Shown: positions 44,557 to 62,666 of the stretch, piece after piece
Layout: each line of letters starts with the position of its first letter
How positions within the stretch are numbered: the stretch's first letter is position 1
Assembly (NCBI GenBank): GCA_964400675.1
Contig: CAYNVO010000004.1
Coordinates: 77,723-141,722, forward strand
Length of the DNA: 64,000 nt
Direction: 5' to 3'
Source of the DNA: an uncultured Dehalococcoidales bacterium
Lineage (GTDB): Bacteria > Chloroflexota > Dehalococcoidia > GIF9 > UBA5629
Program-made: the position numbers and the translations under genes
Notes under the pieces: generated by a model
Database searches by the model: none
What the model was told of the DNA's origin: nothing
The model's input: the letters and a program-made list of their open reading frames with translations, nothing else

Positions 44557-46059
44557 ATGCCCGGTAACGGCTACATCTTAGTTATCGACCAGGGAACCAC
44601 GGGGAGCGCCGCTCTTCTCTTCGATGAGGAGGGACAGGTTGTTTCCATTGCAGATAGTGAAATAACCCAGATATATCCTCAGCCCGGTTGGGTGGAACAC
44701 GACCCCAAAGAGATTTTCCGCACCTCGCTGGCAGTAGCCAGGGAGGCTCTCCAAAAAGCCAAAGTGTCCGCCTCTAATGTTAAAGGCATGGGCATCACCA
44801 ATCAGCGGGAGACCACCGTGGTGTGGGACCGCCGCACCGGTGAGCCGGTCAGCAATGCCATTGTCTGGCAGTGCCGTCGTACCGCATCGATGTGTGAGGC
44901 ACTTAAGCAAAAAGGATTGAGCGGGCTTATTAAGGAGAAGACCGGGCTGCCCATAGACGCCTACTTTTCTGCTACTAAACTCCGCTGGATTTTAGACCGC
45001 ATACCCGAGGGGCAGCGCCGTGCCCAGCAGGGCGACCTGTTGTTCGGCACCATAGATAGCTGGCTCGTCTGGAATCTTACCCGTGGCGCTGTACATATCA
45101 CCGACTACAGCAACGCCTCCCGTACCATGTTATTCAACATCCACACTCTTAAATGGGATGAAGAGATTCTTAATATACTGGGCATACCGGAGGCTGTTCT
45201 TCCCAAGGTTATGCCTTCCAGTCAGGTTTATGGTGAGACTGCTGCTGGGCTGCTGGGAAATGCTCGTGTGCCTCTGGGAGGCATAGCTGGCGACCAGCAG
45301 GCAGCACTGTTTGGCCAGGCATGTTACGATGCCTGCATGGCAAAGAACACCTATGGCACGGGCTCTTTCATCCTGCTCAACACCGGTGATAAGCCGACTC
45401 CTTCCGAGAAAGGGCTGGTGACAACACTTGCCTGGGGATTAGATGGCAAGTTTACTTATGCCATGGAGGGGAGCATCTTCATCACCGGCGCTGCCATACA
45501 GTGGTTGCGTGATGGCTTGGGCTTGATAAAAAGTGCTGCTGAGAGCGAGCCGCTTGCCCGCTCCGTTACTCATAATGACGGAGTTTACTTTGTCCCTGCT
45601 TTTGTGGGTCTGGGTGCTCCTTACTGGGACATGTATGCTCGTGGCACCATCGTCGGTCTGACTAGAGGCACCACTGCAGGACATCTGGCAAGGGCTACCC
45701 TGGAAGCCATTGCCTACCAGGTTCGTGACGTAATAGATGTGATGAGCGATGAAGCCTGTATTCAATTGGCATTGCTCAGGGTAGATGGTGGAGGCACTGC
45801 CAATGACTTCCTGATGCAGTTTCAAGCTGATATGCTGGGAGTACCCATTCAGCCGTCATCAGTGGCTGAGACTACGTCTCTGGGTGCTGCTTATCTGGCA
45901 GGCTTGGCGGTGGGCATGTGGAAAGATACTGCTCAACTCGCCCAAATGTGGCGTGCTGCTAAGACCTACGAACCAAACATGTCTGCCGACGAGCGGGAAA
46001 CACTTTATTCCGGTTGGAAACGCGCCGTGGAACGCGCCCGCGGCTGGATAGAAAGCTGA
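44557..46059 (+). CDS. glpK: Glycerol kinase
   Basis: [35 protein letters not shown]. Confidence 0.96.
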
Positions 46060-46100
46060 GTTCATCTCATAGAATAATCCCCCTTTGGGAGAGAAACTAT

Positions 46101-47738
46101 ATGAAGAGAGATTTTGACGCCATCGCACGGGAAAAATTCGACTTGATTGTCATAGGCGGCGGCATCATAGGCACAGGCATCGCCCGTGATGCCTCTCTAC
46201 GCGGCATAAAGACTTTGCTCATTGAAAAGGAAGACTTTGGCTACGGTACCACTTCTCGTTCCTCGCGCTTGATTCACGGAGGTCTGCGTTATCTGCGTAT
46301 GCTGGAGTTTCACCTTGTGGGTCAGGACCTGCACGAGCGAGAAGTTTTATTGAAAATCGCACCTCACCTGGTGCATCCCTACCCTTTCGTCATACCACTG
46401 ACCAACCTTTATTACCAGATAACTCTGAGCCTGGGCGTGCGGCTGTATGATTTTATGGCTGCGGGCAAGTCTATGCCCTCCCATCAGCATCTGTCGCGGC
46501 GTGAGACTCTGGACATGGAGCCGGAGCTTGCGGAGATAAAGGGCTTGAAAGGTGCCATAGTTTACTACGATTGCCAGGCGCCGTTTACGGAGCGTCTGGG
46601 CGTAGAGAATGTGCTCTGCGCTTCGGAGCATGGTGCCACCATCATAAACCATGCTCAGCTTACCGGATTTCTCAGAGATGGTAACGATGTCTGCGGGATA
46701 GAAGTACTTGATTGTATATCAGGAGAGACCTACAAGGTGAAGGCGCGGCTGGTAGTTAATGCCGCCGGTCACTGGGTTGACTGTGTCAGGGATTTGCTTC
46801 ATGGCGGCCCTGCCAGCACGGTACGCCGAACCAAGGGCATACATCTGCTTACACCGAAGCTGACAAACAAGGCACTGGTTCTCTTTTCTCCCACAGATGG
46901 TCGCCTTTTCTTCGTCATGCCCTGGCTGGGCTACACTCTTATAGGCACCACAGACACCGACTATAATGGAGACCTTGACGCTGTTTGCGCTGACGAATCT
47001 GACGTGGCATATATGCTTAATGGACTACACCAGGCATTTCCCAGGCTGTGTGAAGAAGACATAATTTATACTACCGCCGGGTTACGTTCCCTGGCTCACA
47101 TTGGCGGTGAAAGGGCGTCGAATATTACGCGTGAACACAAGGTGCTTGACCATAAAGGGAGGGATGGAATAGAAGGCTTAATCACAGTGCTCGGAGGCAA
47201 GATAACCGCCTACCGCGCCGTGGCTAAGGATGCTGTTAACATGGTCTGTCGCAAGCTCGGCGTGAAGGCAGAGTGTACCACAGCGGAAGTTCCTCTCCCC
47301 GGGGCACCGGCTGTGCCTCAGCCCAGGGTGGCGAAAGCAGCTAGAGATAGCGACCTCCCCGTTGAGACGGTAAAGCACCTTGCCGACCTGTATGGCTCAC
47401 GCTTCTCGCAGGTGTTGAATTTGGCGAAGCGTGACAAACGAGCCGGTCAGCCCATCTGCCCTCACTGTAAGGATATTCTGGCGCAGGTAGAATACAGCGT
47501 AAAAGAGGAAAGTGCCCTTACAGTAAGTGACTTTATGCTGCGGCGCAGTGCCGTGGGATTTGAGGCATGTCAGGGGCTGGATGGCGTGGAGGCGGTGGCA
47601 AAAGAGATGGGGCGCCTGCTGGGGTGGAGCAAGGCTGAACAGCAACGACAGGTTGAAGCCTACCGCGCCCAGGCAGCGCTGGGTCAGCATTTCAGGACAG
47701 GCTCAAAGAAACGGCCGAAGAAGACCATCAAGGTTTGA
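46101..47738 (+). CDS. glpD: FAD-dependent glycerol-3-phosphate dehydrogenase
   Basis: GGGIIG, GTTSRSSRLIHGGLRYL, GTTD, GGKITAYR; start MKRDF. Confidence 0.92.
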   Translation: MKRDFDAIAREKFDLIVIGGGIIGTGIARDASLRGIKTLLIEKEDFGYGTTSRSSRLIHGGLRYLRMLEFHLVGQDLHEREVLLKIAPHLVHPYPFVIPLTNLYYQITLSLGVRLYDFMAAGKSMPSHQHLSRRETLDMEPELAEIKGLKGAIVYYDCQAPFTERLGVENVLCASEHGATIINHAQLTGFLRDGNDVCGIEVLDCISGETYKVKARLVVNAAGHWVDCVRDLLHGGPASTVRRTKGIHLLTPKLTNKALVLFSPTDGRLFFVMPWLGYTLIGTTDTDYNGDLDAVCADESDVAYMLNGLHQAFPRLCEEDIIYTTAGLRSLAHIGGERASNITREHKVLDHKGRDGIEGLITVLGGKITAYRAVAKDAVNMVCRKLGVKAECTTAEVPLPGAPAVPQPRVAKAARDSDLPVETVKHLADLYGSRFSQVLNLAKRDKRAGQPICPHCKDILAQVEYSVKEESALTVSDFMLRRSAVGFEACQGLDGVEAVAKEMGRLLGWSKAEQQRQVEAYRAQAALGQHFRTGSKKRPKKTIKV

Positions 47739-47774
47739 CACTCAAAGTCAAACTGTGCTAACTTTTTAACGCTT

Positions 47775-47846
47775 GGCAGCGTAGCTCAGTGGCAGAGCAG
47801 GGGACTCATAAGCCCTTGGTCGCTGGTTCAAATCCAGCCGCTGCCA
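47775..47846 (+). tRNA. tRNA-Met (CAT), elongator type; CCA not encoded
   Basis: GGCAGCG acceptor stem, D-arm AGCTCAGTGGCAGAGC, CTCATAA anticodon loop, GCTGG-TTCAAAT-CCAGC T-arm; TTGACA upstream. Ile2 not fully excluded. Confidence 0.9.
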
Positions 47847-47852
47847 CTTCTT

Positions 47853-48446
47853 TTATTTCGATTTTACTATTTTGGGAATTCCTATCCATCTTGGGGTTCT
47901 ATTCACATATTTAAGATAGGTATCACCATATTTTTCAAGACAGAACCGTTCTTCGGCAGGTGCACAGAGAATTGCAAGGATTATATGTACGATTATAAGC
48001 AACAAAAAAAGCCAAGAAGCAGAAGCAATGCCAATGCCTATGTATTGTACAAATACCCCGATGTATATTGGATGCCTTGAATATTTGTATAGTCCCTTGG
48101 TAATAGGTTCATCTATAGGAGTAGTCCTCCAAGATATTCTTGCAATCACACAAATTATCAGTCCCACTACGAAGAGGGCGATACCTGCATAAAGCAATGG
48201 CGTCCCCAAGGGCAGTGGCAGGAAGATGGAGTATATGATTAGAATAATCAAAATTGCCGTCCCAAAGTTGTTCATTATTTTTTCTGATTTGTTGGGTGGG
48301 GGATAGGCAGCCGACTTTTTGAACTGGGCTTTGTAGTCATACCTGAATATCGGCCAATCAAGAGGCACTACATGAAAAAACACCCAGGCTACCCAGAAAA
48401 TCCACAGATTCCATACGCCTATCTCAAAAGCTGGTATAAGTGACAT
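47853..48446 (-). CDS. Isoprenylcysteine carboxyl methyltransferase/PEMT family membrane protein (cassette 1)
   Basis: ITKGLYKYSRHPIY, EERFCLEKYG..Y..Y...TPRW. Confidence 0.85.
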   Translation of the reverse strand: MSLIPAFEIGVWNLWIFWVAWVFFHVVPLDWPIFRYDYKAQFKKSAAYPPPNKSEKIMNNFGTAILIILIIYSIFLPLPLGTPLLYAGIALFVVGLIICVIARISWRTTPIDEPITKGLYKYSRHPIYIGVFVQYIGIGIASASWLFLLLIIVHIILAILCAPAEERFCLEKYGDTYLKYVNRTPRWIGIPKIVKSK

Positions 48447-48627
48447 GATTCACCTCTATCCAGTCAACGTCTCGCTATTATAGCACCGTCGTTATCTCGA
48501 GTATACATGGTTATTTTACTCCTAAGCTTATATCTACATCCCTATTGACCTTCTCCTGATTCTTATTTATCGTCGCGTTGAAGGAGGTCAATATGAGTGG
48601 TACAATACCAACTATAGCGGCACTGGC

Positions 48628-48673
48628 ACTCATAAGCCCTTGGTCGCTGGTTCAAATCCAGCCGCTGCCACCA
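48628..48673 (+). repeat. tRNA-Met 3' fragment, copy 1 (anticodon loop to CCA; att-like)
   Basis: ACTCATAAGCCCTTGGTCGCTGGTTCAAATCCAGCCGCTGCCA identical to the tRNA, followed by CCA. Confidence 0.95.
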
Positions 48674-48824
48674 ATATCCCTAGAACACCTCATAAAGAAC
48701 AAGGATTTACCCAACATACTCAAGGCTATTTAGCTTCCCCGATTGAACAAGCAATTAACAGCTTGCTGTAATAGGGCAAATTGTCTACGAAGACAGGCTT
48801 TTATATTATCCTAGATGTTTCGAG

Positions 48825-49136
48825 CTATTTTTTCATCAATATTCGGCACGGGGCAACCATGACCAGCAGATAACCGATTATCCTGATGATAATTATGAAC
48901 GCTTCTAAACTCGCTGCCAGTCCCGCCAGCGTTAGAGCATGAGAAACGGCAAACAAACCGAAGGCGATGCCGATGTAAAGAGATACCTCAGGAATAGCCA
49001 TTGCCCTGCCAGGTGCTGAGGCTTCGCTACTACTGAGTTTGTGAAGAGCTATGTCAGACTTCCTCTTAATATACGCCCAGATGCCCAAAATGAATATTAC
49101 GGTAGTCAGGATCAAATTGATAATAGTAATCGTCAT
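48825..49136 (-). CDS. Small multi-pass membrane protein (cassette 2)
   Basis: Three hydrophobic segments; AAGGGG RBS-like sequence. Confidence 0.7.
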   Translation of the reverse strand: MTITIINLILTTVIFILGIWAYIKRKSDIALHKLSSSEASAPGRAMAIPEVSLYIGIAFGLFAVSHALTLAGLAASLEAFIIIIRIIGYLLVMVAPCRILMKK

Positions 49137-49437
49137 TTTTTATACCCCCTTTACTTTTGAAATTCAGCAACGTATGCAACACGGCTTCAAGCCATATCCA
49201 CATTATGTTGCCAGCCCGACATCGTACTAGCTTTGACCGACAAAGTAAATAGTGCCATACGATTATAAACTGTACGGCGAAGACTCTGGATAACTTTATT
49301 GCCACCATAATCCCGCCCACAAACCTGATTTATCCTCAGCAATCTCCTCGTTGCTTTTGATGGTTAAGAACGAATCTGTAGAAGTAATACGAGATTTTCT
49401 TGACCAGTTGGCTACTATTCTAGGCTTTACTCGACTT

Positions 49438-49471
49438 TTGGTCACTGGTTCAAATCCAGCCGCTGCCACTT
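49438..49471 (+). repeat. tRNA-Met 3' fragment, copy 2
   Basis: TTGGTCACTGGTTCAAATCCAGCCGCTGCCACTT; one mismatch to the tRNA. Confidence 0.93.
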
Positions 49472-49513
49472 ATGTTTTAGCTTCACCTAGCCATTTTGCG
49501 CCTGGTACGGTTA

Positions 49514-49888
49514 CTAGACTCCAGCCAACCCCTCTAACAACCCAAACTCTATAATAGATACAAGAACGGCGATACAAATACCGAAACCTATACCCTTCGC
49601 TATTTCCCATTTACGCGTAACTGCAAAACCAGCCAATGCTAGCAGAGCTGCACCAATGACAAACATGCCCGTAATAAAAAGATTGTTTGAGATGTCCGAT
49701 ACTTCAACGTTTCCAGTTGCATTTTGTAATAACTGGAAGACCACAGCGGTTACAGCTAAAACCAGAGATGGAAGTATTACTGACAATATTGCGTATTTAC
49801 GGGGTTTAGATAGGTTCTTTCGAGGTCTAAGCATCCAGGCAACAATGCAAACAGCGACAAATACAGGAATGGTAAATATCATAATCAA
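49514..49888 (-). CDS. Small four-TM membrane protein (cassette 3)
   Basis: Four hydrophobic segments; AGGAGG RBS. Confidence 0.75.
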   Translation of the reverse strand: MIMIFTIPVFVAVCIVAWMLRPRKNLSKPRKYAILSVILPSLVLAVTAVVFQLLQNATGNVEVSDISNNLFITGMFVIGAALLALAGFAVTRKWEIAKGIGFGICIAVLVSIIEFGLLEGLAGV

Positions 49889-49940
49889 TGCCTCCTATTT
49901 TGTGTTTCATCTTGCTTCTAGAATAGCACAACCTGTCAAT

Positions 49941-49975
49941 CTTGGTCACTGGTTCAAATCCAGTCGCTGCCACCA
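49941..49975 (+). repeat. tRNA-Met 3' fragment, copy 3
   Basis: CTTGGTCACTGGTTCAAATCCAGTCGCTGCCACCA; compensatory A:T pair in the T-stem. Confidence 0.93.
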
Positions 49976-50104
49976 TCAGGTATAAATCCACGCCTTTTTG
50001 ACCGCTGGTAGATCTACCATGACCATATGCTATACTTTTATGGTTAGGGATTAACTTGGAGAAAGGCATATGCAGTTCGCTTAGTGTTCGGAGCATTTCG
50101 TACT

Positions 50105-51238
50105 ATGGCATATAGGGCTGACATTACTATTATTGGGGCTGGCATAATTGGATTGGCGATAGCCGCACAAGTGGCGGAGGATGATAGAGATATTTATGTG
50201 CTGGAAAAGAATGAAATTTTTGGTCAAGAAACAAGTAGTAGACACAGTGGGGTTATCCACTCTGGCATCTATTATCCCGAAGGCTCACTAAAGGCGAAGA
50301 TGTGCGTAGCGGGGAATCAGATGCTCTACGAGCTTTGCGCAAAGTATTGTATAGGTCACAGGAGAATAGGAAAGTTGATAGTGGCAGTATGTGAGGAAGA
50401 AACTGATGAATTGGAAATATTGCTTGAGCAAGGCCAGAGAAACGGAGCAGAGGGGCTCAAGATACTTTCAAGACGAGAAATGAAGGAGTTGGAGCCAAAT
50501 GTAGAAGGGGTCGCTGCCATTCTGTCCCCTTCAACCGGCATTATTGACTCACATGAATTGATGAAATATTTCATTGCTAAAGCCGAGGGCCAAGGAGTTC
50601 AAATAGTTTACCAAACAAGGGTGGTGGGAATAGAAAAGGTATCCGGGGGATACAAAGTCACTGTACGAGATCGCACAGGAGAATTCCAATTCATCACGAT
50701 GATTCTTATAAATTGTGCTGGCCTCTACTCTGATAGGGTTGCCGAACTAGCTGGCATAAATATAGCAAAGGCGGCGTACAAATTGCATTACTGCAAAGGG
50801 GAGTACTTCAGCGTAGGCAGGGGTAAAAATGGGTTAGTTCAAAAGTTAATATTTCCACTACCACCACCTGGAGTCGCTGGCTTAGGGATTCATGTCACCA
50901 TTGATCTAGAAGGGGTGATGCGATTAGGTCCCAGTATCCACTATGTAGATAGTATAGATTATGCTATCGGCAATCAGCATAAACAGCTCTTTTATGACTC
51001 AGTAAGGAAGTTCCTACCTTTTATCCAGTATGACGATTTAGAACCCGAAATGGCTGGCATTAGGCCAAAGCTTCAGGGGCCTGGGGAAGAGATCAAAGAT
51101 TTTGTGATTAGGGACGAAGGTGATAAAGGCCTACCGGGATTTATCAATCTTATCGGGATTGAGTCGCCCGGCTTGACAGCCTCGCCTGCCATAGCTCAAT
51201 TTGTAGGCAGCTTGGTTAAACAGCTGACAGGCAAATGA
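50105..51238 (+). CDS. FAD-dependent oxidoreductase, L-2-hydroxyglutarate oxidase (LhgO)-like (cassette 4)
   Basis: IIGAGIIG, TSSRHSGVIHSGIYY, KGEYF, GIRPK, GIESPGLTASPAIA. Confidence 0.88.
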   Translation: MAYRADITIIGAGIIGLAIAAQVAEDDRDIYVLEKNEIFGQETSSRHSGVIHSGIYYPEGSLKAKMCVAGNQMLYELCAKYCIGHRRIGKLIVAVCEEETDELEILLEQGQRNGAEGLKILSRREMKELEPNVEGVAAILSPSTGIIDSHELMKYFIAKAEGQGVQIVYQTRVVGIEKVSGGYKVTVRDRTGEFQFITMILINCAGLYSDRVAELAGINIAKAAYKLHYCKGEYFSVGRGKNGLVQKLIFPLPPPGVAGLGIHVTIDLEGVMRLGPSIHYVDSIDYAIGNQHKQLFYDSVRKFLPFIQYDDLEPEMAGIRPKLQGPGEEIKDFVIRDEGDKGLPGFINLIGIESPGLTASPAIAQFVGSLVKQLTGK

Positions 51239-51299
51239 CATGGGCGTCTGGAAGCACGTCAAAAATGGGAGGTTTATTGTGTAACTTTTTAAGGAATAG

Positions 51300-51324
51300 G
51301 GTTCAAATCCAGCCGCTGCCACCA
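51300..51324 (+). repeat. tRNA-Met 3' fragment, copy 4 (T-loop to CCA)
   Basis: GGTTCAAATCCAGCCGCTGCCACCA. Confidence 0.9.
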
Positions 51325-51377
51325 TCTACTCCCGTGTTGACAACCGTATGCAATCGCCGTATCTTACAAATTGAGAA

Positions 51378-52124
51378 ATGAGAAAGTTGGGTATTTTCCT
51401 CCCCATTCTTATGATGGCGTTGCCTCTGTGTGCAGTGTCCTGTGTCACCGTGGAAGTTCCGGTGGTGGAGACTTATTACGATACCGAATACAGGACTGAA
51501 TACAAGACTGAAACCTACACGGAAACTGTGGATGCCGTCGTGAACTCTCGGCAGGGGAGAAAATATCTTAGACCCAGCGTAAAATGGTATACCGACCTGA
51601 TTGTCTCCGGGTATCAAGGTTCAGGCGGCACATACTACTATGGCTATCAGGTTGACCCATCGGGGCATTCTAAAGCCCAGGTGGAAGTCCGTGTTTCGTC
51701 AGGTGCGCAACAGCAAAAAGGGCTGGTGCGGGTTTACGACCTTACCGGCATAGGCCAGATTCCTCCACGCCCAACCCCGTTCAAAGAAATTTGGTATCAG
51801 CCGGATGAACTGAGCTGGTTGAATAGCCTTAATTACACGCTCAACGGTACACGCCTCCTGGGTGAGGTGCGCACTGGCGCAGGAATGGATGACTATATTA
51901 TCTTTGGTGCTGATGGAATAAGGGAGTTCGGCATATTCGCCACTACCTGGCACGCCTATTCCATAAGAAGTGTTCAACTGGTATGGGTCGATGAAACAAT
52001 GGGCAAAAAGACGGTCACCCTGGAAAAGCAGGTACCGTATCAGGTACCTTACCAGGTCGAGAAACAGCGGATGGTCTACAAAACAGAAAAAGTGCCTTTC
52101 TGGCAGGCTATCTTGGGTAGGTAG
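51378..52124 (+). CDS. Hypothetical lipoprotein
   Basis: Signal peptide ending AVSC; TEY/QVPY repeats at both ends. Confidence 0.7.
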   Translation: MRKLGIFLPILMMALPLCAVSCVTVEVPVVETYYDTEYRTEYKTETYTETVDAVVNSRQGRKYLRPSVKWYTDLIVSGYQGSGGTYYYGYQVDPSGHSKAQVEVRVSSGAQQQKGLVRVYDLTGIGQIPPRPTPFKEIWYQPDELSWLNSLNYTLNGTRLLGEVRTGAGMDDYIIFGADGIREFGIFATTWHAYSIRSVQLVWVDETMGKKTVTLEKQVPYQVPYQVEKQRMVYKTEKVPFWQAILGR

Positions 52125-52129
52125 CAGTC

Positions 52130-52384
52130 TCAGGATTGGGTGGTTTGTAATTTAAACGCGCTACCCACTCCGATTTGTATGGTAGCTAATTCGCCTAATC
52201 GTTTTGCCGCCCTGGCCGGAATCCAATTAGTGGGTTTCCAGGAGCCGTTATAGCCTGGCAACAAGATCGTATAGTAGCCATCATTGGTCGTTATACCTAT
52301 CTTGCAGCCGTCACCCAGGTCGATTATTTCCTTGGGCTGCCAGTTTACTTGATTTTCAGACTTTTCGGATTCGATGCTATACAT
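52130..52384 (-). CDS. Hypothetical protein
   Basis: 84-aa ORF with AAGGAG RBS. Confidence 0.55.
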   Translation of the reverse strand: MYSIESEKSENQVNWQPKEIIDLGDGCKIGITTNDGYYTILLPGYNGSWKPTNWIPARAAKRLGELATIQIGVGSAFKLQTTQS

Positions 52385-58466: not shown

Positions 58467-58510
58467 GTCGAATAGTTGAATAGAAGCACAATTACGGATT
58501 ATATCACTTC
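58467..58510 (+). repeat. Direct repeat B, copy 2
   Basis: GTCGAATAGTTGAATAGAAGCACAATTACGGATTATATCACTTC. Confidence 0.85.
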
Positions 58511-58755
58511 CCTAATTAGGGCTACCGACCGCTAATGCTGCAATTCACATGCCATACGAGTGCATCGATAATACAACCCGGCTTCCGATAGGCATAATTG
58601 CTCTATATATTCAGTTTACTGATGGTTATAAATACCATGACGAGGACCTGAATTTTAGGTATTACCGGAAGTTGAGAATAGGTATCACAGCGGAAGTTAG
58701 TTTAAACAATAACTGGTAAGCTGGTAATAGAAAATAAAAGAAGGAGGTGACTAAG

Positions 58756-58926
58756 ATGGAATGGCAGATTATAGTAGCTCTAGTGATTGCGGTGCCAGTC
58801 ATTATGTTCCCTGCAGCTTTCGTGTGGTATACGAACCTGAGCGGAGTTTATGAGGCTGTTAAAGAAGCCAGAGCCAAGAAAGCTGCTCAAGAGAAGGGTG
58901 CCAAAGTAAAAGTCTACGCTAAATAG
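58756..58926 (+). CDS. 56-aa single-TM small protein; not in the ORF track
   Basis: MEWQIIVALVIAVPVIMFPAAFVWYTNLSGVYEAVKEARAKK...; AAGGAGGTGA RBS. Confidence 0.85.
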   Translation: MEWQIIVALVIAVPVIMFPAAFVWYTNLSGVYEAVKEARAKKAAQEKGAKVKVYAK

Positions 58927-58978
58927 AAACAGTACGTAAAGGAATGCACAGAAATAATAAAAAAGGAGGTTAAAAACA

Positions 58979-59140
58979 ATGCAGTTAGAATTGATAATAG
59001 CACTGGCGGTAACGATACCAGTAGTCCTCTTTCCAGCGGCTTTCGTGTGGTACCTGAACATCGGTGGTATTGTGCAGGCTATGCGTGAGGCAAGAGCTGC
59101 CCGAGAAAAGAAAGTTGCCACAGCAAAGACAACCGGCTAA
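58979..59140 (+). CDS. 53-aa paralogous single-TM small protein; not in the ORF track
   Basis: MQLELIIALAVTIPVVLFPAAFVWYLNIGGIVQAMREARAAREKK...; AAGGAGGT RBS. Confidence 0.85.
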   Translation: MQLELIIALAVTIPVVLFPAAFVWYLNIGGIVQAMREARAAREKKVATAKTTG

Positions 59141-59207
59141 GAAACATACTGTAAAACTCGAAAGAAGGAGGCAGGGAAGCTGAAGTTGAGCAGGGGCACA
59201 AAACCTT

Positions 59208-59245
59208 TAAGGCTGGATATCCGAAAAAGAAGATATCCAGCCTTA
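59208..59245 (+). terminator. Hairpin after the small-protein pair
   Basis: TAAGGCTGGATATC...GATATCCAGCCTTA, 14-bp inverted repeat. Confidence 0.6.
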
Positions 59246-59323
59246 TTAGAAATAGTCTATGCAAGGAAATTATAGCCATATTATACCCATTAAAAATAAT
59301 AGGGCGTTTATAGGAGGTAAAAA

Positions 59324-59560
59324 ATGAAATCTCTTCGCATCGTTATTCCGATTCTAATTACTGCTTTTGTGACAGCCATTGCCATATTTTCTGCTATCTG
59401 GTTAACCGGGTTGGTTCCCGCTGGACCATGGTCTGATTTAATTAAAGCGGCAATTGTGATATTTATTATCGGCTCTACTCTTGTGATAATAGCCTGGTCT
59501 GCGTATTTCACTTACATAATCAGGGGGACCGTCGAAAGGTTGGGATCTAAAAAAGATTAG
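59324..59560 (+). CDS. Small two-TM membrane protein
   Basis: AGGAGGT RBS, two hydrophobic helices. Confidence 0.75.
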   Translation: MKSLRIVIPILITAFVTAIAIFSAIWLTGLVPAGPWSDLIKAAIVIFIIGSTLVIIAWSAYFTYIIRGTVERLGSKKD

Positions 59561-59609
59561 TATTTTTGACAACGAGCATTTGAGTAACAGCATAACCAAC
59601 CTGTATGGC

Positions 59610-59678
59610 TTATCTCTTCCGGCAGGGAATTAGATAGTCCTGATGAGATAAGCTATGGTTTTTAGCTAGAGGGACCTG
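59610..59678 (-). pseudogene. Degenerate relic of the methyltransferase gene (matches 57343..57413)
   Basis: TTATCTCTTCCGGC....GAATT..ATAG.CCTGATGAGATA.GC...GGGACCTG shared with the gene. Confidence 0.7.
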
Positions 59679-59732
59679 ATATTGCCGGTCGGTGGGTTGT
59701 TTCAATAGCATTGTTGGGGGGATAAGCCAGAT

Positions 59733-59777
59733 AGTGGGAAAATCCCACTTGACATCTAATCCCACTCATGGTACGAT
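59733..59777 (+). promoter_or_regulatory. TA operon promoter with overlapping operator palindrome
   Basis: AGTGGGA-AAA-TCCCACT overlapping TTGACA (59749), extra ATCCCACT half-site in the 17-nt spacer, TACGAT -10. Confidence 0.7.
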
Positions 59778-59786
59778 ATCGCTGCC

Positions 59787-60068
59787 ATGGCTAAAATAAT
59801 AAGGGATGCAGACTTCGAGAAGGTAGCTGATAGCGTAAAACCGGACGCTAAAAGGCGCGTAGTTCTGCAAAAGGTTCAAGTGCAGGAAGGCGTCAGCTAT
59901 CATATATACCGCAACAGCATCGGGCAAATTTTACTGGACCCGCAGGTAACCATACCTGCTTCAGAGATATGGCTATTCAATAACCCGAAGGCTCTCGCCT
60001 CGGTCAGGCGGGGGCTTTCCGATGCTGCACGAGGCAGGGTGTCGAAAGTCGACCTCGACGCCCTGTAA
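59787..60068 (+). CDS. Putative antitoxin (AbrB-like N-terminus)
   Basis: D.KRRV.L...G.ILLDP N-terminus; WLFNNP.ALASVRRGL.DA..GRV tail; upstream of a RelE-like gene. Confidence 0.6.
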   Translation: MAKIIRDADFEKVADSVKPDAKRRVVLQKVQVQEGVSYHIYRNSIGQILLDPQVTIPASEIWLFNNPKALASVRRGLSDAARGRVSKVDLDAL

Positions 60069-60080
60069 GGTCAGGCGCTT

Positions 60081-60374
60081 TTGTTTGAATTACAATGGAC
60101 AGCGGAGGCAAGTAAAACCTACAATCTGCTTAAAAGTACTGCCTCCCAGAGGGAACGTTACCAAGCTGTCAAAAAGACCGTCAAGTTCCTGGCAGCGAAC
60201 CCTCGGCATCCCAGCCTCCAGCCCCATGAATATATCAGTTTGAAAAGTCCTGACGGGGAGAAGGTTTTTGAGGCATATGCAGAGCAGAGCACACCCGCAG
60301 CCTATAGAGTCTTCTGGTATTACGGTCCTTCCAAAGGCGTAATCACGATTTTTGCCATTACTTCTCACCCTTAG
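60081..60374 (+). CDS. Putative RelE/ParE-superfamily toxin
   Basis: L..NPRHPSL..H, FEAY, AYRVFWYY...ITIFAIT.HP. Confidence 0.65.
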   Translation: MFELQWTAEASKTYNLLKSTASQRERYQAVKKTVKFLAANPRHPSLQPHEYISLKSPDGEKVFEAYAEQSTPAAYRVFWYYGPSKGVITIFAITSHP

Positions 60375-60585
60375 TCACGCCCTGGCGAAGGGGCTCAAAT
60401 CCCCAACCAATTGTGTATCAGACAGCTGCCCTCCCATTGAGCTACCGGTATAACAAAGTCAGTAGCTGGTATGCATACGACGCTGATGATGATAACTAGG
60501 TATTACTAAGCGGTAGGTTGCCATGATGCGGTGGAGGCGCATAAGAGGTGTAGTCTTGTTGTGGTCTCAAAGCCCGAATGACCTG

Positions 60586-61200
60586 TCATCCGGCTTTCAG
60601 TTTCTTTATCGTTAAAATATATTGTGCTACTTCGTGCGTTTTATTTAAAACCATAGCTAATTCTTCAAATTTTATTTCGTAATTCGCAACTATAAGAGCT
60701 TCATCGTTTTCGCTAACAGTCAACATAATTGGTTTGCCTGGACCTATCTCACCCTTTTGAATTTTTTCGTCTATGTGCTCCACAGCATTTCGAATGTTTG
60801 CTATGGATTCACTTTTTGTTTCTAATAATCTTCGCAGTTCTCTTGGCCATCCTGGTGATTGCTTCTCTGACTTGATTCTTTCTAATAGATTAAATAGCCT
60901 TGAGACGGCATTAATGCAGGTTTCGATGTGGTCTGTAAACTCAATAACATGTATTTCCCGTCCTCGTTTTCTCAACTCTTTTACTGGACGATTTGCTTCT
61001 GCCACATCAGCAAGAATAGCTCCTCTCGCTTCTTTATATTCCCTTAAGGCTTTATCTACTAGGCGAATAAAATTTTTTCTGTAAAGCGCTGCTTTCCGAC
61101 TTAAACTAGGATCACCTATCAATATTTGAACAATCAAACGGTTTATAAGAGTGTCCAAACCTGACAAATCAGGCATTTTGCATTCTTTCGGAATTCCCAT
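60586..61200 (-). CDS. Hypothetical protein (HEPN-like R-N-x-x-E-H motif)
   Basis: AT-rich helical ORF containing IRNAVEH. Confidence 0.6.
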   Translation of the reverse strand: MGIPKECKMPDLSGLDTLINRLIVQILIGDPSLSRKAALYRKNFIRLVDKALREYKEARGAILADVAEANRPVKELRKRGREIHVIEFTDHIETCINAVSRLFNLLERIKSEKQSPGWPRELRRLLETKSESIANIRNAVEHIDEKIQKGEIGPGKPIMLTVSENDEALIVANYEIKFEELAMVLNKTHEVAQYILTIKKLKAG

Positions 61201-61466
61201 TATCTCGCTCCGATTCCTTTATGCGCAATAATTCATTGAAGGAAGAATATCTAAGGGTCGTCCCAGAATTTCTCTACAGGAAGAGCTATCTTTATGTCAA
61301 ATTTCTCTGCTTCCTTTAGCAGAAAGTCAGTGAACTTCTCCACCGTGTCAGTATGAATGAATATATAGTCTTGAAGATATTCCTCAAATTGCGCCTCGCA
61401 TTTTTCAGGGTCAGACTCGGCTTCAGGAACACTCCAAGCAAGTTTAGGTGCTTTACCATCTTCCGT

Positions 61467-61850
61467 TCACATAAAATTATGCAGACGGCTATAGATTGGC
61501 TTACTGTCAATGAACTCAATTGTGTTTGCTTCTATGAGTTCGATTTGATACACCCGTTTTCTATATTTATAGATCGTGATATCTCCCTCACGTAGTGCAT
61601 TGGAAACTTGCTCTAGACTTTTATTTCTAATGGCTTCAGCATGCTTCAACTCAAGCGTATATTCCCTAATCAAGACCGCCATTTCTTTTATTAACTCTAT
61701 ATCGTCTGTTTGTTCAGCCTCGGTTGTCGTTTCTGAGCTAGAGCCGCAACCTGCAATAGATATAGCTAATATCAAAACTAGTGCTATAATCAGAAGGGGA
61801 AACTGCCATCTTCTCATTTCAGCCTCCTTGACTGCCAGAAACATAGCCAA
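61467..61850 (-). CDS. Hypothetical lipoprotein, possibly truncated
   Basis: MRRWQ...IAGC lipobox (likely start 61817), AGGAGG RBS. Confidence 0.5.
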   Translation of the reverse strand: MAMFLAVKEAEMRRWQFPLLIIALVLILAISIAGCGSSSETTTEAEQTDDIELIKEMAVLIREYTLELKHAEAIRNKSLEQVSNALREGDITIYKYRKRVYQIELIEANTIEFIDSKPIYSRLHNFM

Positions 61851-61910
61851 GGCTATCTGGGAACATCTTCTTCCTTAACATATACTATGATTATTGGAGT
61901 ACTGGCCTGG

Positions 61911-62666
61911 CTAATGTTCGAATTCTTCGGAAATATTGTATTCAGGTTCGATAACGCAAATAGCGTAATGCTCCAGGAGCACGCGCTTCTTCCAGGGCTG
62001 CTTTCTTTGTTTTTCATCGAGTACGACCAGATGCCGAACAGTGCAGTTAGCGGATAAGTATTTCTGGGCTTCACTTGAGTCGGCACAAAGCTTTTTATCG
62101 ATTAGCCCTTTCTGAATCGGTTGACTGCTAAATCCAAACAGCCTGTTTTGATGTTGGGCGTGCTGCCGAATTCTTTTCTGTATATCCATAGTTCTGCCCA
62201 CATAGATACATTTCTTTTGCTTTCTATCGTAGACTAGATAGACTCCCGGTTTTGTGGGAAGATGTCCGCAAGCCTGTTCGTAGTCTAACTCCTCTGAGTT
62301 GAGCAACTTGCTGAGCAGGTGAATGACCTCATCATTAGGTTTTAAAGTCAGGCTCTCCTTAGTTATCATCAAACCTTTAGCCCATGAATCTAGCCCATCA
62401 CTATAGCCGCCTATTCGCGTGCCATTGCAATTAGTGGTGTGGCCCCAGCAGCAGGGGTAAATACGGGCAAACTCCCGCCCGCGCTGTTTGACTGCAATAA
62501 ACCTGGGGTCCTGGTCTTCCGGAGTCCTTTTACGCCGGGAAGCCAGCGCGATAAACTTGTGACCGTCTGGCGTTACCATCTGCTGTTCGCCGGCTTCATC
62601 CAGGCGCTGCCAGACAATATCGAACCGGCTCTGTAGTAGCTTTTGACTTTGATGCCGCACACTCAT
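61911..62666 (-). CDS. Protein with C-terminal GIY-YIG nuclease domain
   Basis: PGVYLVY...CIYVGRT..IQKRIRQH...E...I...P.YN. Confidence 0.75.
   Translation of the reverse strand: MSVRHQSQKLLQSRFDIVWQRLDEAGEQQMVTPDGHKFIALASRRKRTPEDQDPRFIAVKQRGREFARIYPCCWGHTTNCNGTRIGGYSDGLDSWAKGLMITKESLTLKPNDEVIHLLSKLLNSEELDYEQACGHLPTKPGVYLVYDRKQKKCIYVGRTMDIQKRIRQHAQHQNRLFGFSSQPIQKGLIDKKLCADSSEAQKYLSANCTVRHLVVLDEKQRKQPWKKRVLLEHYAICVIEPEYNISEEFEH

Follow-up and report, generated by a model that had tools for sequence, protein, structure and literature searches.

Tandem accretion of elements at tRNA and transfer-messenger RNA (tmRNA) genes, with partial copies of the target gene and integrase-less members, is established. 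Among streptococcal elements of the ICESt1 type, cis-mobilizable elements (CIMEs) are described as keeping both attL and attR while having lost the genes for integration and transfer (PMC5704250). Here we analyse a 64,000-nucleotide (nt) stretch from an uncultured Dehalococcoidales bacterium (GenBank assembly GCA_964400675.1, contig CAYNVO010000004.1, positions 77,723 to 141,722; hereafter the window), in which an intact tRNA(CAT) gene is followed by four direct copies of its own 3′ end that bound four small units, or cassettes. As far as the streptococcal account describes its elements, the units of the window resemble them in their flanking att sites derived from a tRNA 3′ end, in lacking integration and transfer genes and in being stacked in tandem (PMC5704250). 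They differ from CIMEs in being of one-gene scale, with a median length of about 1 kb and lengths down to about 0.2–0.5 kb. Integrase-free units outnumber integrase-bearing ones by 55:3, and the autonomous relatives carry an Xer-like integrase and show no conjugation or mobilisation genes.

A second precedent comes from the same class. In Dehalococcoides, islands at ssrA that lack integration modules ‘might be cis-mobilizable elements’, in the words of McMurdie et al. 2011 (PMC3146451). Like the units of the window, the ssrA islands are reported there to stand in tandem downstream of a single-copy small-RNA gene, with direct repeats of its 3′ end and insertion in the T-loop region. They are described as having a tmRNA target, a 20-bp repeat, a CcrB-like serine recombinase encoded in a six-gene module and multi-gene rdhA islands (PMC3146451), whereas the window has a tRNA(CAT) target, a lone Xer-like tyrosine recombinase as the candidate enzyme and units mostly of one gene. 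The tycheposons of Prochlorococcus (Hackl et al., bioRxiv 10.1101/2020.12.28.424599) are, like the elements considered here, tyrosine-recombinase elements at tRNAs of streamlined genomes; successive integrations are described as displacing older elements outward, and partial tRNAs and fragmented integrases occur in the islands, as they do here. Compared by description, tycheposons carry replication modules or modules like those of phage-inducible chromosomal islands (PICIs), none of which was found with Pfam in the complete units here, and in the available part of the preprint integrase-less one-gene units flanked by partial tRNAs are not described as the dominant form.

Two further systems are similar in organization. 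Integrons share with the array small, mostly one-gene cassettes, a recurring site, content that varies between relatives and a recombinase of the Xer-like branch. However, the sites of the array are tRNA 3′ ends, not attC, and the genome that holds the window (G000; 2.18 Mb, 98.66% complete) has no IntI and no resident integrase adjacent to the array. Gene orientation is random in the 54 analysable integrase-free segments compared below (48 genes on the minus strand and 44 on the plus strand), which rules out a common promoter logic. On these three grounds, the integron-like label given to the array in a preliminary description made from the sequence alone had to be abandoned. The Xer-dependent dif modules of Acinetobacter plasmids and the integrative mobile elements exploiting Xer (IMEX) are reported to be, like the units here, small and recombinase-less, with short Xer-type sites and shuffling between replicons; they use dif-like sites and the host XerC/XerD (PMC13141974, PMC6449649). 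By contrast, the units of the window are chromosomal and tRNA-anchored; their sites are copies of a T-arm and acceptor end taken from the tRNA, and the enzyme proposed for them is encoded on an element.

The novelty lies in the one-gene scale of the units, the dominance of integrase-free members, the shuffling of cassettes, a lone Xer-like integrase without other backbone genes, and the class-wide spread of the arrangement at one tRNA. Our literature search found no description of one-gene, tRNA-Met-flanked cassette arrays in Dehalococcoidia; the supplements of the tycheposon and McMurdie papers lay outside that search and may show small integrase-less units. The locus bears on the open question of how accessory genes are exchanged in small-genome uncultured bacteria without plasmids or conjugative elements. 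It is certainly an integration hotspot made by an integrase. On balance, we lean towards the view that the units of the window resemble CIMEs, as small non-autonomous elements with recombination at the T-arm of the tRNA and a need for a trans-acting integrase that G000 lacks.

The tRNA(CAT) gene and its displaced 3′ ends

The sole tRNA that ARAGORN calls in the window is an intact tRNA-Met(CAT) gene at 47775-47847 on the plus strand, which nhmmer also recovers and which would take the attL/attB role. Its G1–C71 pair shows that it is not an initiator; it fits either a tRNA-Met or a tRNA-Ile2(k2C). An nhmmer repeat profile places a putative tRNA-derived recombination core, termed O, at 47802-47849 (plus strand) of this gene, and a repeat search finds the core starts of five direct copies of the tRNA 3′ end, including the intact one, at 47825, 48649, 49447, 49951 and 51300, with spacings of 824, 798, 504 and 1349 bp between successive copies. 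The preliminary description had read the region as an intact tRNA-Met followed by four direct copies of its 3′ end that delimit units of about 0.83, 0.80, 0.50 and 1.35 kb; this is confirmed, and the measured spacings match the units.

All displaced copies lie on the plus strand, 3′ of the tRNA, according to the repeat profile. Copy 1 (48626-48673, 48 nt) extends from the anticodon loop; copy 2 spans 49426-49471 in the profile, with true identity only from about 49438; copy 3 (49940-49975, 36 nt) is of a foreign ACTGG/CCAGT type; and copy 4 (51299-51324, 26 nt) starts at the T-loop. Common to all of them are the T-loop and the acceptor end, which make up a 23-nt minimum. The 2.18-Mb genome as a whole has five occurrences of this 23-nt core, every one at the tRNA-Met locus, and a backwards-read control has 0, which excludes chance as the source of the copies. 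Directly 3′ of the intact tRNA stands CTT, with no encoded CCA, whereas copies 1, 3 and 4 have kept the CCA (47845-47850 compared with 48671-48675, 49973-49977 and 51322-51326). An encoded CCA is absent from 14 of the 48 tRNAs of G000, in which the CCA-adding enzyme family is present, and the CTT fits an original trailer replaced by the arm of cassette 1.

The four repeat-bounded cassettes follow one another on the plus strand of the window. Cassette 1 (47848-48673; 824 bp including the distal repeat) contains a gene for a 197-residue membrane methyltransferase assigned by family match to the PEMT/ICMT family (47853-48446, minus strand), a P-arm with a conserved promoter-like motif that lies 85 nt before the distal repeat (48541-48573), and a short open reading frame (ORF) that runs through repeat copy 1 (48578-48733). 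Cassettes 2 (48674-49471; 798 bp) and 3 (49472-49975; 504 bp) carry minus-strand genes for membrane proteins of 103 residues (48825-49136) and 124 residues (49514-49888), respectively, each with four hydrophobic segments and no family match. Cassette 4 (49976-51324; 1349 bp) encodes on the plus strand a DAO-family FAD-dependent oxidoreductase (50084-51238), for which the nearest model is an L-2-hydroxyglutarate oxidase (LhgO-like) that scores under its cut-off. Each unit thus has one substantial ORF, three of them on the minus strand and one on the plus strand, and GC content drops from about 0.52-0.58 in glpD to 0.40-0.46 over 47850-51320, in line with the earlier remarks that the units carry essentially one gene each and that several look more AT-rich than glpK/glpD. 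Neither a recombinase nor a transfer function was found when the four cassette ORFs were compared with Pfam and NCBIfam, and no integrase similarity was found in the four units by six-frame hidden Markov model (HMM) searches and tblastn. The number of sigma-70-like matches in the array, 9, does not depart from the chance expectation of 7.7 ± 2.8. Examined as a tRNA island, the locus has a regenerated intact tRNA with low-GC foreign DNA immediately 3′ of it, and four distal direct repeats of the tRNA 3′ end of 26-48 nt; an integrase within the island itself is absent from the window and present in three related loci (L098, L099 and L105).

G000 was assembled from a metagenome, and chimeric joins at a conserved tRNA sequence could in principle mimic such an array. 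The repeat does draw foreign contigs, with depth spikes at 47696-47869 and 48566-48739. We nevertheless consider an assembly or binning artefact very improbable. Among contigs from other sequencing runs (Logan metagenome contigs, not reads, used here as supporting evidence only), X15 record 18 (48520-48927) crosses repeat copy 1 and X12 record 7 (48644-52200) crosses copies 2-4, both with 0 differences; error-free crossing by independent contigs argues that the arrangement is not made by the assembly. Moreover, the block formed by cassettes 2 and 3 is found independently in a related genome (G006), and the architecture recurs in dozens of genomes.

Variation and a signature of transfer at repeat edges

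The comparison with G006 (locus L047), whose flanks are about 94% identical to those of the window, shows whole units present or absent between repeats. Sequence is shared over 46001-47847 and breaks at the tRNA end. Cassette 1 is missing from G006, with two different cassettes in its place; cassettes 2 and 3 are shared (48624-49975, 94.9% identity); and cassette 4 is missing, its place being taken by 49 nt and the degenerate end of a repeat. Homology resumes at 51317, inside the last repeat. All four breaks (47847, 48624, 49975 and 51317) are therefore at repeat edges. Cassette 2 and its G006 counterpart (L047_c3) are 96.7% identical, and their ORFs differ by 4 synonymous and 2 non-synonymous codons.

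Cassette 3 is found in a third genome, G010, with different neighbours. Its identity to the window is 92.5% in G006 and 91% in G010, and all three genomes have kept its ORF intact. The flanks of G010 have diverged much further, to 74.8% identity in glpD and 63.9% in the right flank, as against 91% for the cassette, and the left neighbour of the cassette is a TPR gene. The homology begins within the left repeat and ends within the right one. Between G000 and G010 the ORF has 17 synonymous and 14 non-synonymous codon differences, with few second-position changes. In these sequence comparisons, cassette 3 shows the signature of horizontal transfer as a discrete repeat-bounded unit. Beyond the right-hand repeat of the cassette-3 homolog, the G010 locus (L061, G010:C6) continues as a stretch of N. 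Two integrase-free cassettes from different genera, L099_c3 and L114_c2, are 91% identical over 1574 nt.

Contigs from other runs add variants of the array. A 637-nt contig of X17, with a depth of 6.35 like that of neighbouring contigs, leads from the end of cassette 2 through a repeat into the start of cassette 1. In X14, an oxidase cassette of about 90% identity is homologous from 49978, just past repeat copy 3, and has different sequence upstream. The preliminary description had proposed a comparison of this locus across relatives, and cassette number and content do vary at repeat boundaries; so does order, in one metagenome contig. Several other joints were set aside: 47855>49941, 48675>49941, 48676>49945 and 47849>47810 have sides of 24-30 nt or lie within repeats, and a joint in X12 (47854>48542, depth 22.3) may be the tRNA and integrase leader of another organism. 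Stretches that lack cover in X15 and X17 were given no weight.

The array is part of a class-wide pattern in Dehalococcoidia-like genomes. The repeat motif is present in 34 of 61 related genomes, 14 of which have at least two clustered copies, and in an even sample of the class (401 genomes) it was found in 40, with at least two copies in 11 of the 40, including five further families. We fetched 40 related loci for comparison with the window and judged integrases near arrays from local six-frame searches. The first 20 loci and the window contain 43 repeat-bounded cassettes, in 17 of the 21 loci, with lengths of 220-6095 bp and a median of 1246 bp. Across all 40 loci and the window there are 69 inter-repeat segments: 55 have no trace of an integrase (194-4817 bp, median about 1 kb), 11 have integrase fragments only, and 3, of 7.2-8.4 kb, have a near-full integrase. 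The integrase-free segments are compact, with a median coding fraction of 0.82 and a spacer of about 50 nt on each side, and 28 of the 54 analysable ones hold one ORF. Among 51 cassette ORFs of at least 100 residues, the 30 largest (at least 199 residues) gave no match to recombinase or transposase families; the large ORFs encode transporters, binding proteins, dehydrogenases, hydrolases, TPR proteins and another ICMT.

The repeats themselves point to where strands may be exchanged. T-stem variants covary among species, and 47 partial copies could be classified by whether each side of the stem is of host or foreign type: both sides are of host type in 26 and foreign in 7, and 12 are foreign-left/host-right hybrids against 2 of the opposite kind, a count tempered by rows that are not all independent (the two duplicates of L110, and the cassettes shared by L052 and L055). 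Repeat copy 2 of the window has a hybrid T-stem, ACTGG...CCAGC. The 12:2 polarity is as expected of attR sites arising from a crossover in or near the T-loop. As read from the sequence, the T-arm forms an imperfect dyad of 5-9 nt around TTCAAAT, and we infer that the crossover lies in or near the T-arm and T-loop.

The same repeats could also be old integration scars between which RecA-type homologous recombination acts, with exchange through 23-48-nt repeats or through allelic replacement by way of the flanks after DNA uptake. Repeats of up to 48 nt would be enough for rare events, the glpD and c4 flanks are conserved across the genus, and orthologous repeats of G000 and G006 differ at covarying positions, as gene conversion could yield. 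We nevertheless think this explanation improbable. The hybrid polarity is not expected from homologous recombination or from mutation, several boundaries rest on about 23-26 nt of identity, and cassette 3 moved between genomes whose flanks are 64-75% identical, which are poor substrates for allelic replacement.

An Xer-like integrase family and its remnants

With a C-terminal integrase piece from a local profile as query, 202 genomes of the order were searched, and three of them (G194, G191 and G019) proved to have a full-length integrase of 310-316 residues directly 3′ of tRNA-Met, on the same strand; in G194 the gene starts about 115 nt past the tRNA. Pfam assigns to the protein a SAM-like N-terminal domain and a catalytic domain only. 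Its best NCBIfam models are XerA, XerC and XerD, all under cut-off, and two integron-integrase models score 58.5 bits (cut-off 265) and 31.6 (cut-off 435). Simple recombinases such as Xer and Cre need just a short core site. Three complete units were available, and the integrase gene is the sole gene they have in common. Their cargo consists of Mrr-type endonuclease, TPR, HEPN and exonuclease proteins and unknowns, and Pfam found no replication, transfer, phage, conjugation or mobilisation modules in these three units. In L099 (G191), an integrase-free cassette of 1.07 kb lies between the tRNA and the integrase-bearing unit.

A promoter-like motif, TTGACC-17 nt-TATCGT, occurs at both ends of complete units, about 49 nt past the proximal repeat as the leader of the integrase gene and, as seen in L098 and L099, some 119 nt ahead of the distal repeat. 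The motif also stands 75-120 nt before the distal repeat in several integrase-free cassettes, among them cassette 1 of the window (85 nt). Short C-terminal integrase pieces are found with the local integrase profile directly after the tRNA or a repeat. As these pieces continue in an open frame 3′ of the tRNA or repeat, they raised the idea of an SSV-type split integrase with attP inside the gene. It was ruled out, because the full-length genes have their own start about 115 nt past the tRNA and the short pieces are internal deletions that keep the leader and the 3′ end.

These elements suggest the following mechanism. The 3′ end of tRNA(CAT) is a hotspot for a family of small integrative elements throughout the class, and their autonomous form consists, in order, of O, a promoter-like leader, the 310-316-residue Xer-like integrase on the strand of the tRNA, cargo, a P-arm and a second O. 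The four units of the window, integrase-less, O-bounded and mostly of one gene each, would be CIME-like mini-elements that are gained, lost and re-ordered whole by site-specific recombination between O copies. Crossover would take place at the T-arm or close to it, where the tRNA offers a short site with natural dyad symmetry. G000 currently encodes no such integrase, which an autonomous relative would provide in trans. We infer that the Xer-like integrase is the responsible enzyme and that units without an integrase are themselves mobile when one acts in trans. The mobility of the units is favoured by the indels at repeat edges, by the limits of cassette 3 being kept among different neighbours and by the X17 junction, as well as by the compactness of the 55 of 69 segments, the conserved arm motif and the simple Xer-like enzyme.

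In a competing explanation, autonomous integrase-bearing islands have lost their integrase and most of their cargo, the units that remain are immobile, and relatives differ because each has had its own integrations and later deletions, part of which took place between repeats. The preliminary description had named decay as its alternative, and decay does occur: integrase fragments are present in 11 of the 69 segments, internally deleted integrases adjoin the tRNA in six genomes (G004, G063, G097, G062, G096 and G095), and integrase-tail fragments recur inside arrays. As in a CIME, attL/attR-type sites lie on both sides of each unit of the window; with regard to a decay origin, cassette 1 has kept the motif that also forms the integrase leader, and cassettes 2-4 have no remnant. 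No cognate integrase was found in G000, 98.66% complete as it is, and the matches listed for its genus (g1) include no closely related open frame of at least 300 residues, only remnants in G004 and G005. A course from integration through decay to CIMEs and further accretion is described for streptococcal elements (PMC5704250).

Pure decay is the strongest rival account of the window and a possible one, although four observations tell against it. The 55 of 69 segments without any trace of an integrase are compact. In cassette 1 and in the first G006 cassette, the cargo ORF ends 3 nt past the tRNA-derived repeat, which would need a clean deletion of both leader and integrase. The limits of cassette 3 are identical in two species with flanks of about 75% identity, which would need two independent decays to the same end points. 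Finally, the re-ordered cassette-2/cassette-1 junction of X17 cannot be produced by deletion alone.

The reading of the units as mobile mini-elements has to be set not only against the decay products and the missing cognate integrase but also against several further results. The X17 joint could reflect the array order of another strain, a duplication or a circle, and a circle junction was not demonstrated in the run contigs. The canonical arm motif precedes just 14 partial repeat copies, 13 of them of the long class, and in the window it is found in cassette 1 only. A relative of the integrase was sought in a viral contig collection, with 11 pattern matches and 0 confirmed; a free viral form was dropped because no relative was confirmed there. 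The cassette-1 gene is also present in G010 at 91-96% nucleotide identity, with homology limited to the ORF and no repeat nearby. The preliminary description had proposed a check of whether homologs of the cassette genes elsewhere are also flanked by tRNA-Met 3′ ends, and no such flanking was found for distant homologs of either the oxidase (0 of 29 loci with a repeat within about 1.5 kb) or the methyltransferase (likewise 0 of 29). Taken together, the original proposal of one-gene cassettes stacked by a recombinase acting in trans is upheld in part: variation at repeat edges, the transfer signature of cassette 3 and a candidate integrase family in relatives speak for it, whereas decay occurs as well and the cognate integrase is absent from G000.

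A broader scheme can be offered tentatively. Ordinary chromosomal genes might be packaged as minimal circles with the T-arm and acceptor end of the tRNA, and the Xer-like integrase of rare autonomous elements might insert, excise and shuffle such one-gene circles at any copy of the site, which would make the tRNA-Met locus a population-level exchange point in streamlined genomes without plasmids or conjugation. If the units are mobile, the locus would be a natural platform for the exchange of single genes, built from a tRNA site and a simple recombinase, and would represent an independently evolved functional counterpart of integrons and dif modules. A compact recombinase–site pair, comprising a site of about 23-48 nt and a 314-residue enzyme, and a locus for following gene flux among strains in populations of Dehalococcoidia would then be at hand. 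Were the units no more than decay scars, the locus would be an ordinary integration hotspot, though an unusually fine-grained one.

Cassette genes, flanks and other recombinases of the genome

Homologs of the cassette-4 oxidase are present in 65 of 119 genomes of family f4 and in 4 of 76 genomes of f1, the family of the window, a distribution that suggests import from f4. In 9 of 29 fetched loci (L210, L211, L215, L220-L222 and others), an Xer-like tyrosine recombinase gene adjoins the oxidase homolog; this adjacency may be conserved synteny in f4. Genes of the PEMT/ICMT methyltransferase family turn up repeatedly as cargo, frequently as tandem pairs or triplets (G133:C91, G144:C3 and G016:C46), and further examples are found at L058 4037-4762 and L116 6426-6990; the cases include tRNA-Met arrays of other genera and families.

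The array is framed by conserved genes. On its left, glpD (46014-47738, plus strand; Pfam DAO and DAO_C) is the conserved flank, and glpK-glpD-tRNA-Met is syntenic in the genus, with clusters c2 and c1 upstream of the tRNA in 10 genus-level loci. The glpK gene has its best named relatives in a Dehalococcoidales MAG and a Chloroflexia MAG, at 67-68% identity, which makes the taxonomic assignment an approximate one. On its right, a gene for a 248-residue protein of cluster c4 (51378-52124, plus strand) closes the variable region in the genus, and the order c4-c5-c13-c14 follows that region in the window and in L047, L059, L061, L064 and L066. The frame glpK-glpD-tRNA ... c4-c5-c13 is constant in the genus, and the interval from tRNA to c4 is variable.

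The preliminary description had seen no integrase in the window. This holds for PF00589, which has no match on the contig of the window (transposases were not part of the window screen), and for the four units, which are clean; it has to be qualified by a 29-residue remnant of the 3′ end of a tRNA-Met-type integrase gene at 60474-60560 (plus strand), about 9 kb beyond the array. By tblastn the remnant is 72-76% identical to residues 282-310 of the full-length integrases, and by blastn 77.8% identical over 81 nt. It lies in a second, separate low-GC patch (58500-62500; 0.39-0.46). Beside it is a tRNA-like stretch on the minus strand (60381-60470) that ARAGORN does not call, and ORFs 59787-60068 and 60081-60374 resemble a toxin–antitoxin pair in size and arrangement only.

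Elsewhere, G000 has two Xer-like genes, on contigs C3 and C5, and two large serine recombinases, both on contigs other than that of the window. Tyrosine recombinase genes stand three in a row at two places in the genome (C1:10018-14476 and C10:45188-46857), in a recombinase-in-trio-like arrangement. No full-length gene of G000 comes closer to the tRNA-Met integrase than these trio genes, which share 31-35% identity with it, the best match having 35%.

Integrase-tail units, comprising the last 60-150 nt or so of the integrase gene and about 40 nt downstream, occur many times per array, 0.5-2 kb apart, in L100-L104 (G024 and G190), L115 (G016:C46), L099 (G191) and L113 (G015). They have the orientation of the tRNA, and their left boundary is often sharp and follows unrelated sequence. 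They contain CACATAAG, which is close to CTCATAAG of the tRNA anticodon loop, and, within the tentative scheme above, could represent a second site or a regulator. An attC-like hairpin in the unit was considered and rejected, as no structure is conserved (RNAalifold, -0.19 on 57 copies).

Additional direct copies of the 3′ end are likewise found close to other tRNAs of G000: tRNA-Thr-cgt (C2:36616/38198/43659), tRNA-Ala-ggc (C1:267733/272011), tRNA-Asn (C5:124395/124780) and tRNA-Lys-ttt (C10:56448/47418). The tRNA-Lys case is adjoined by an integrase (C10:55681), and the tRNA-Ala island contains an integrase-tail piece (C1:269109-269222).

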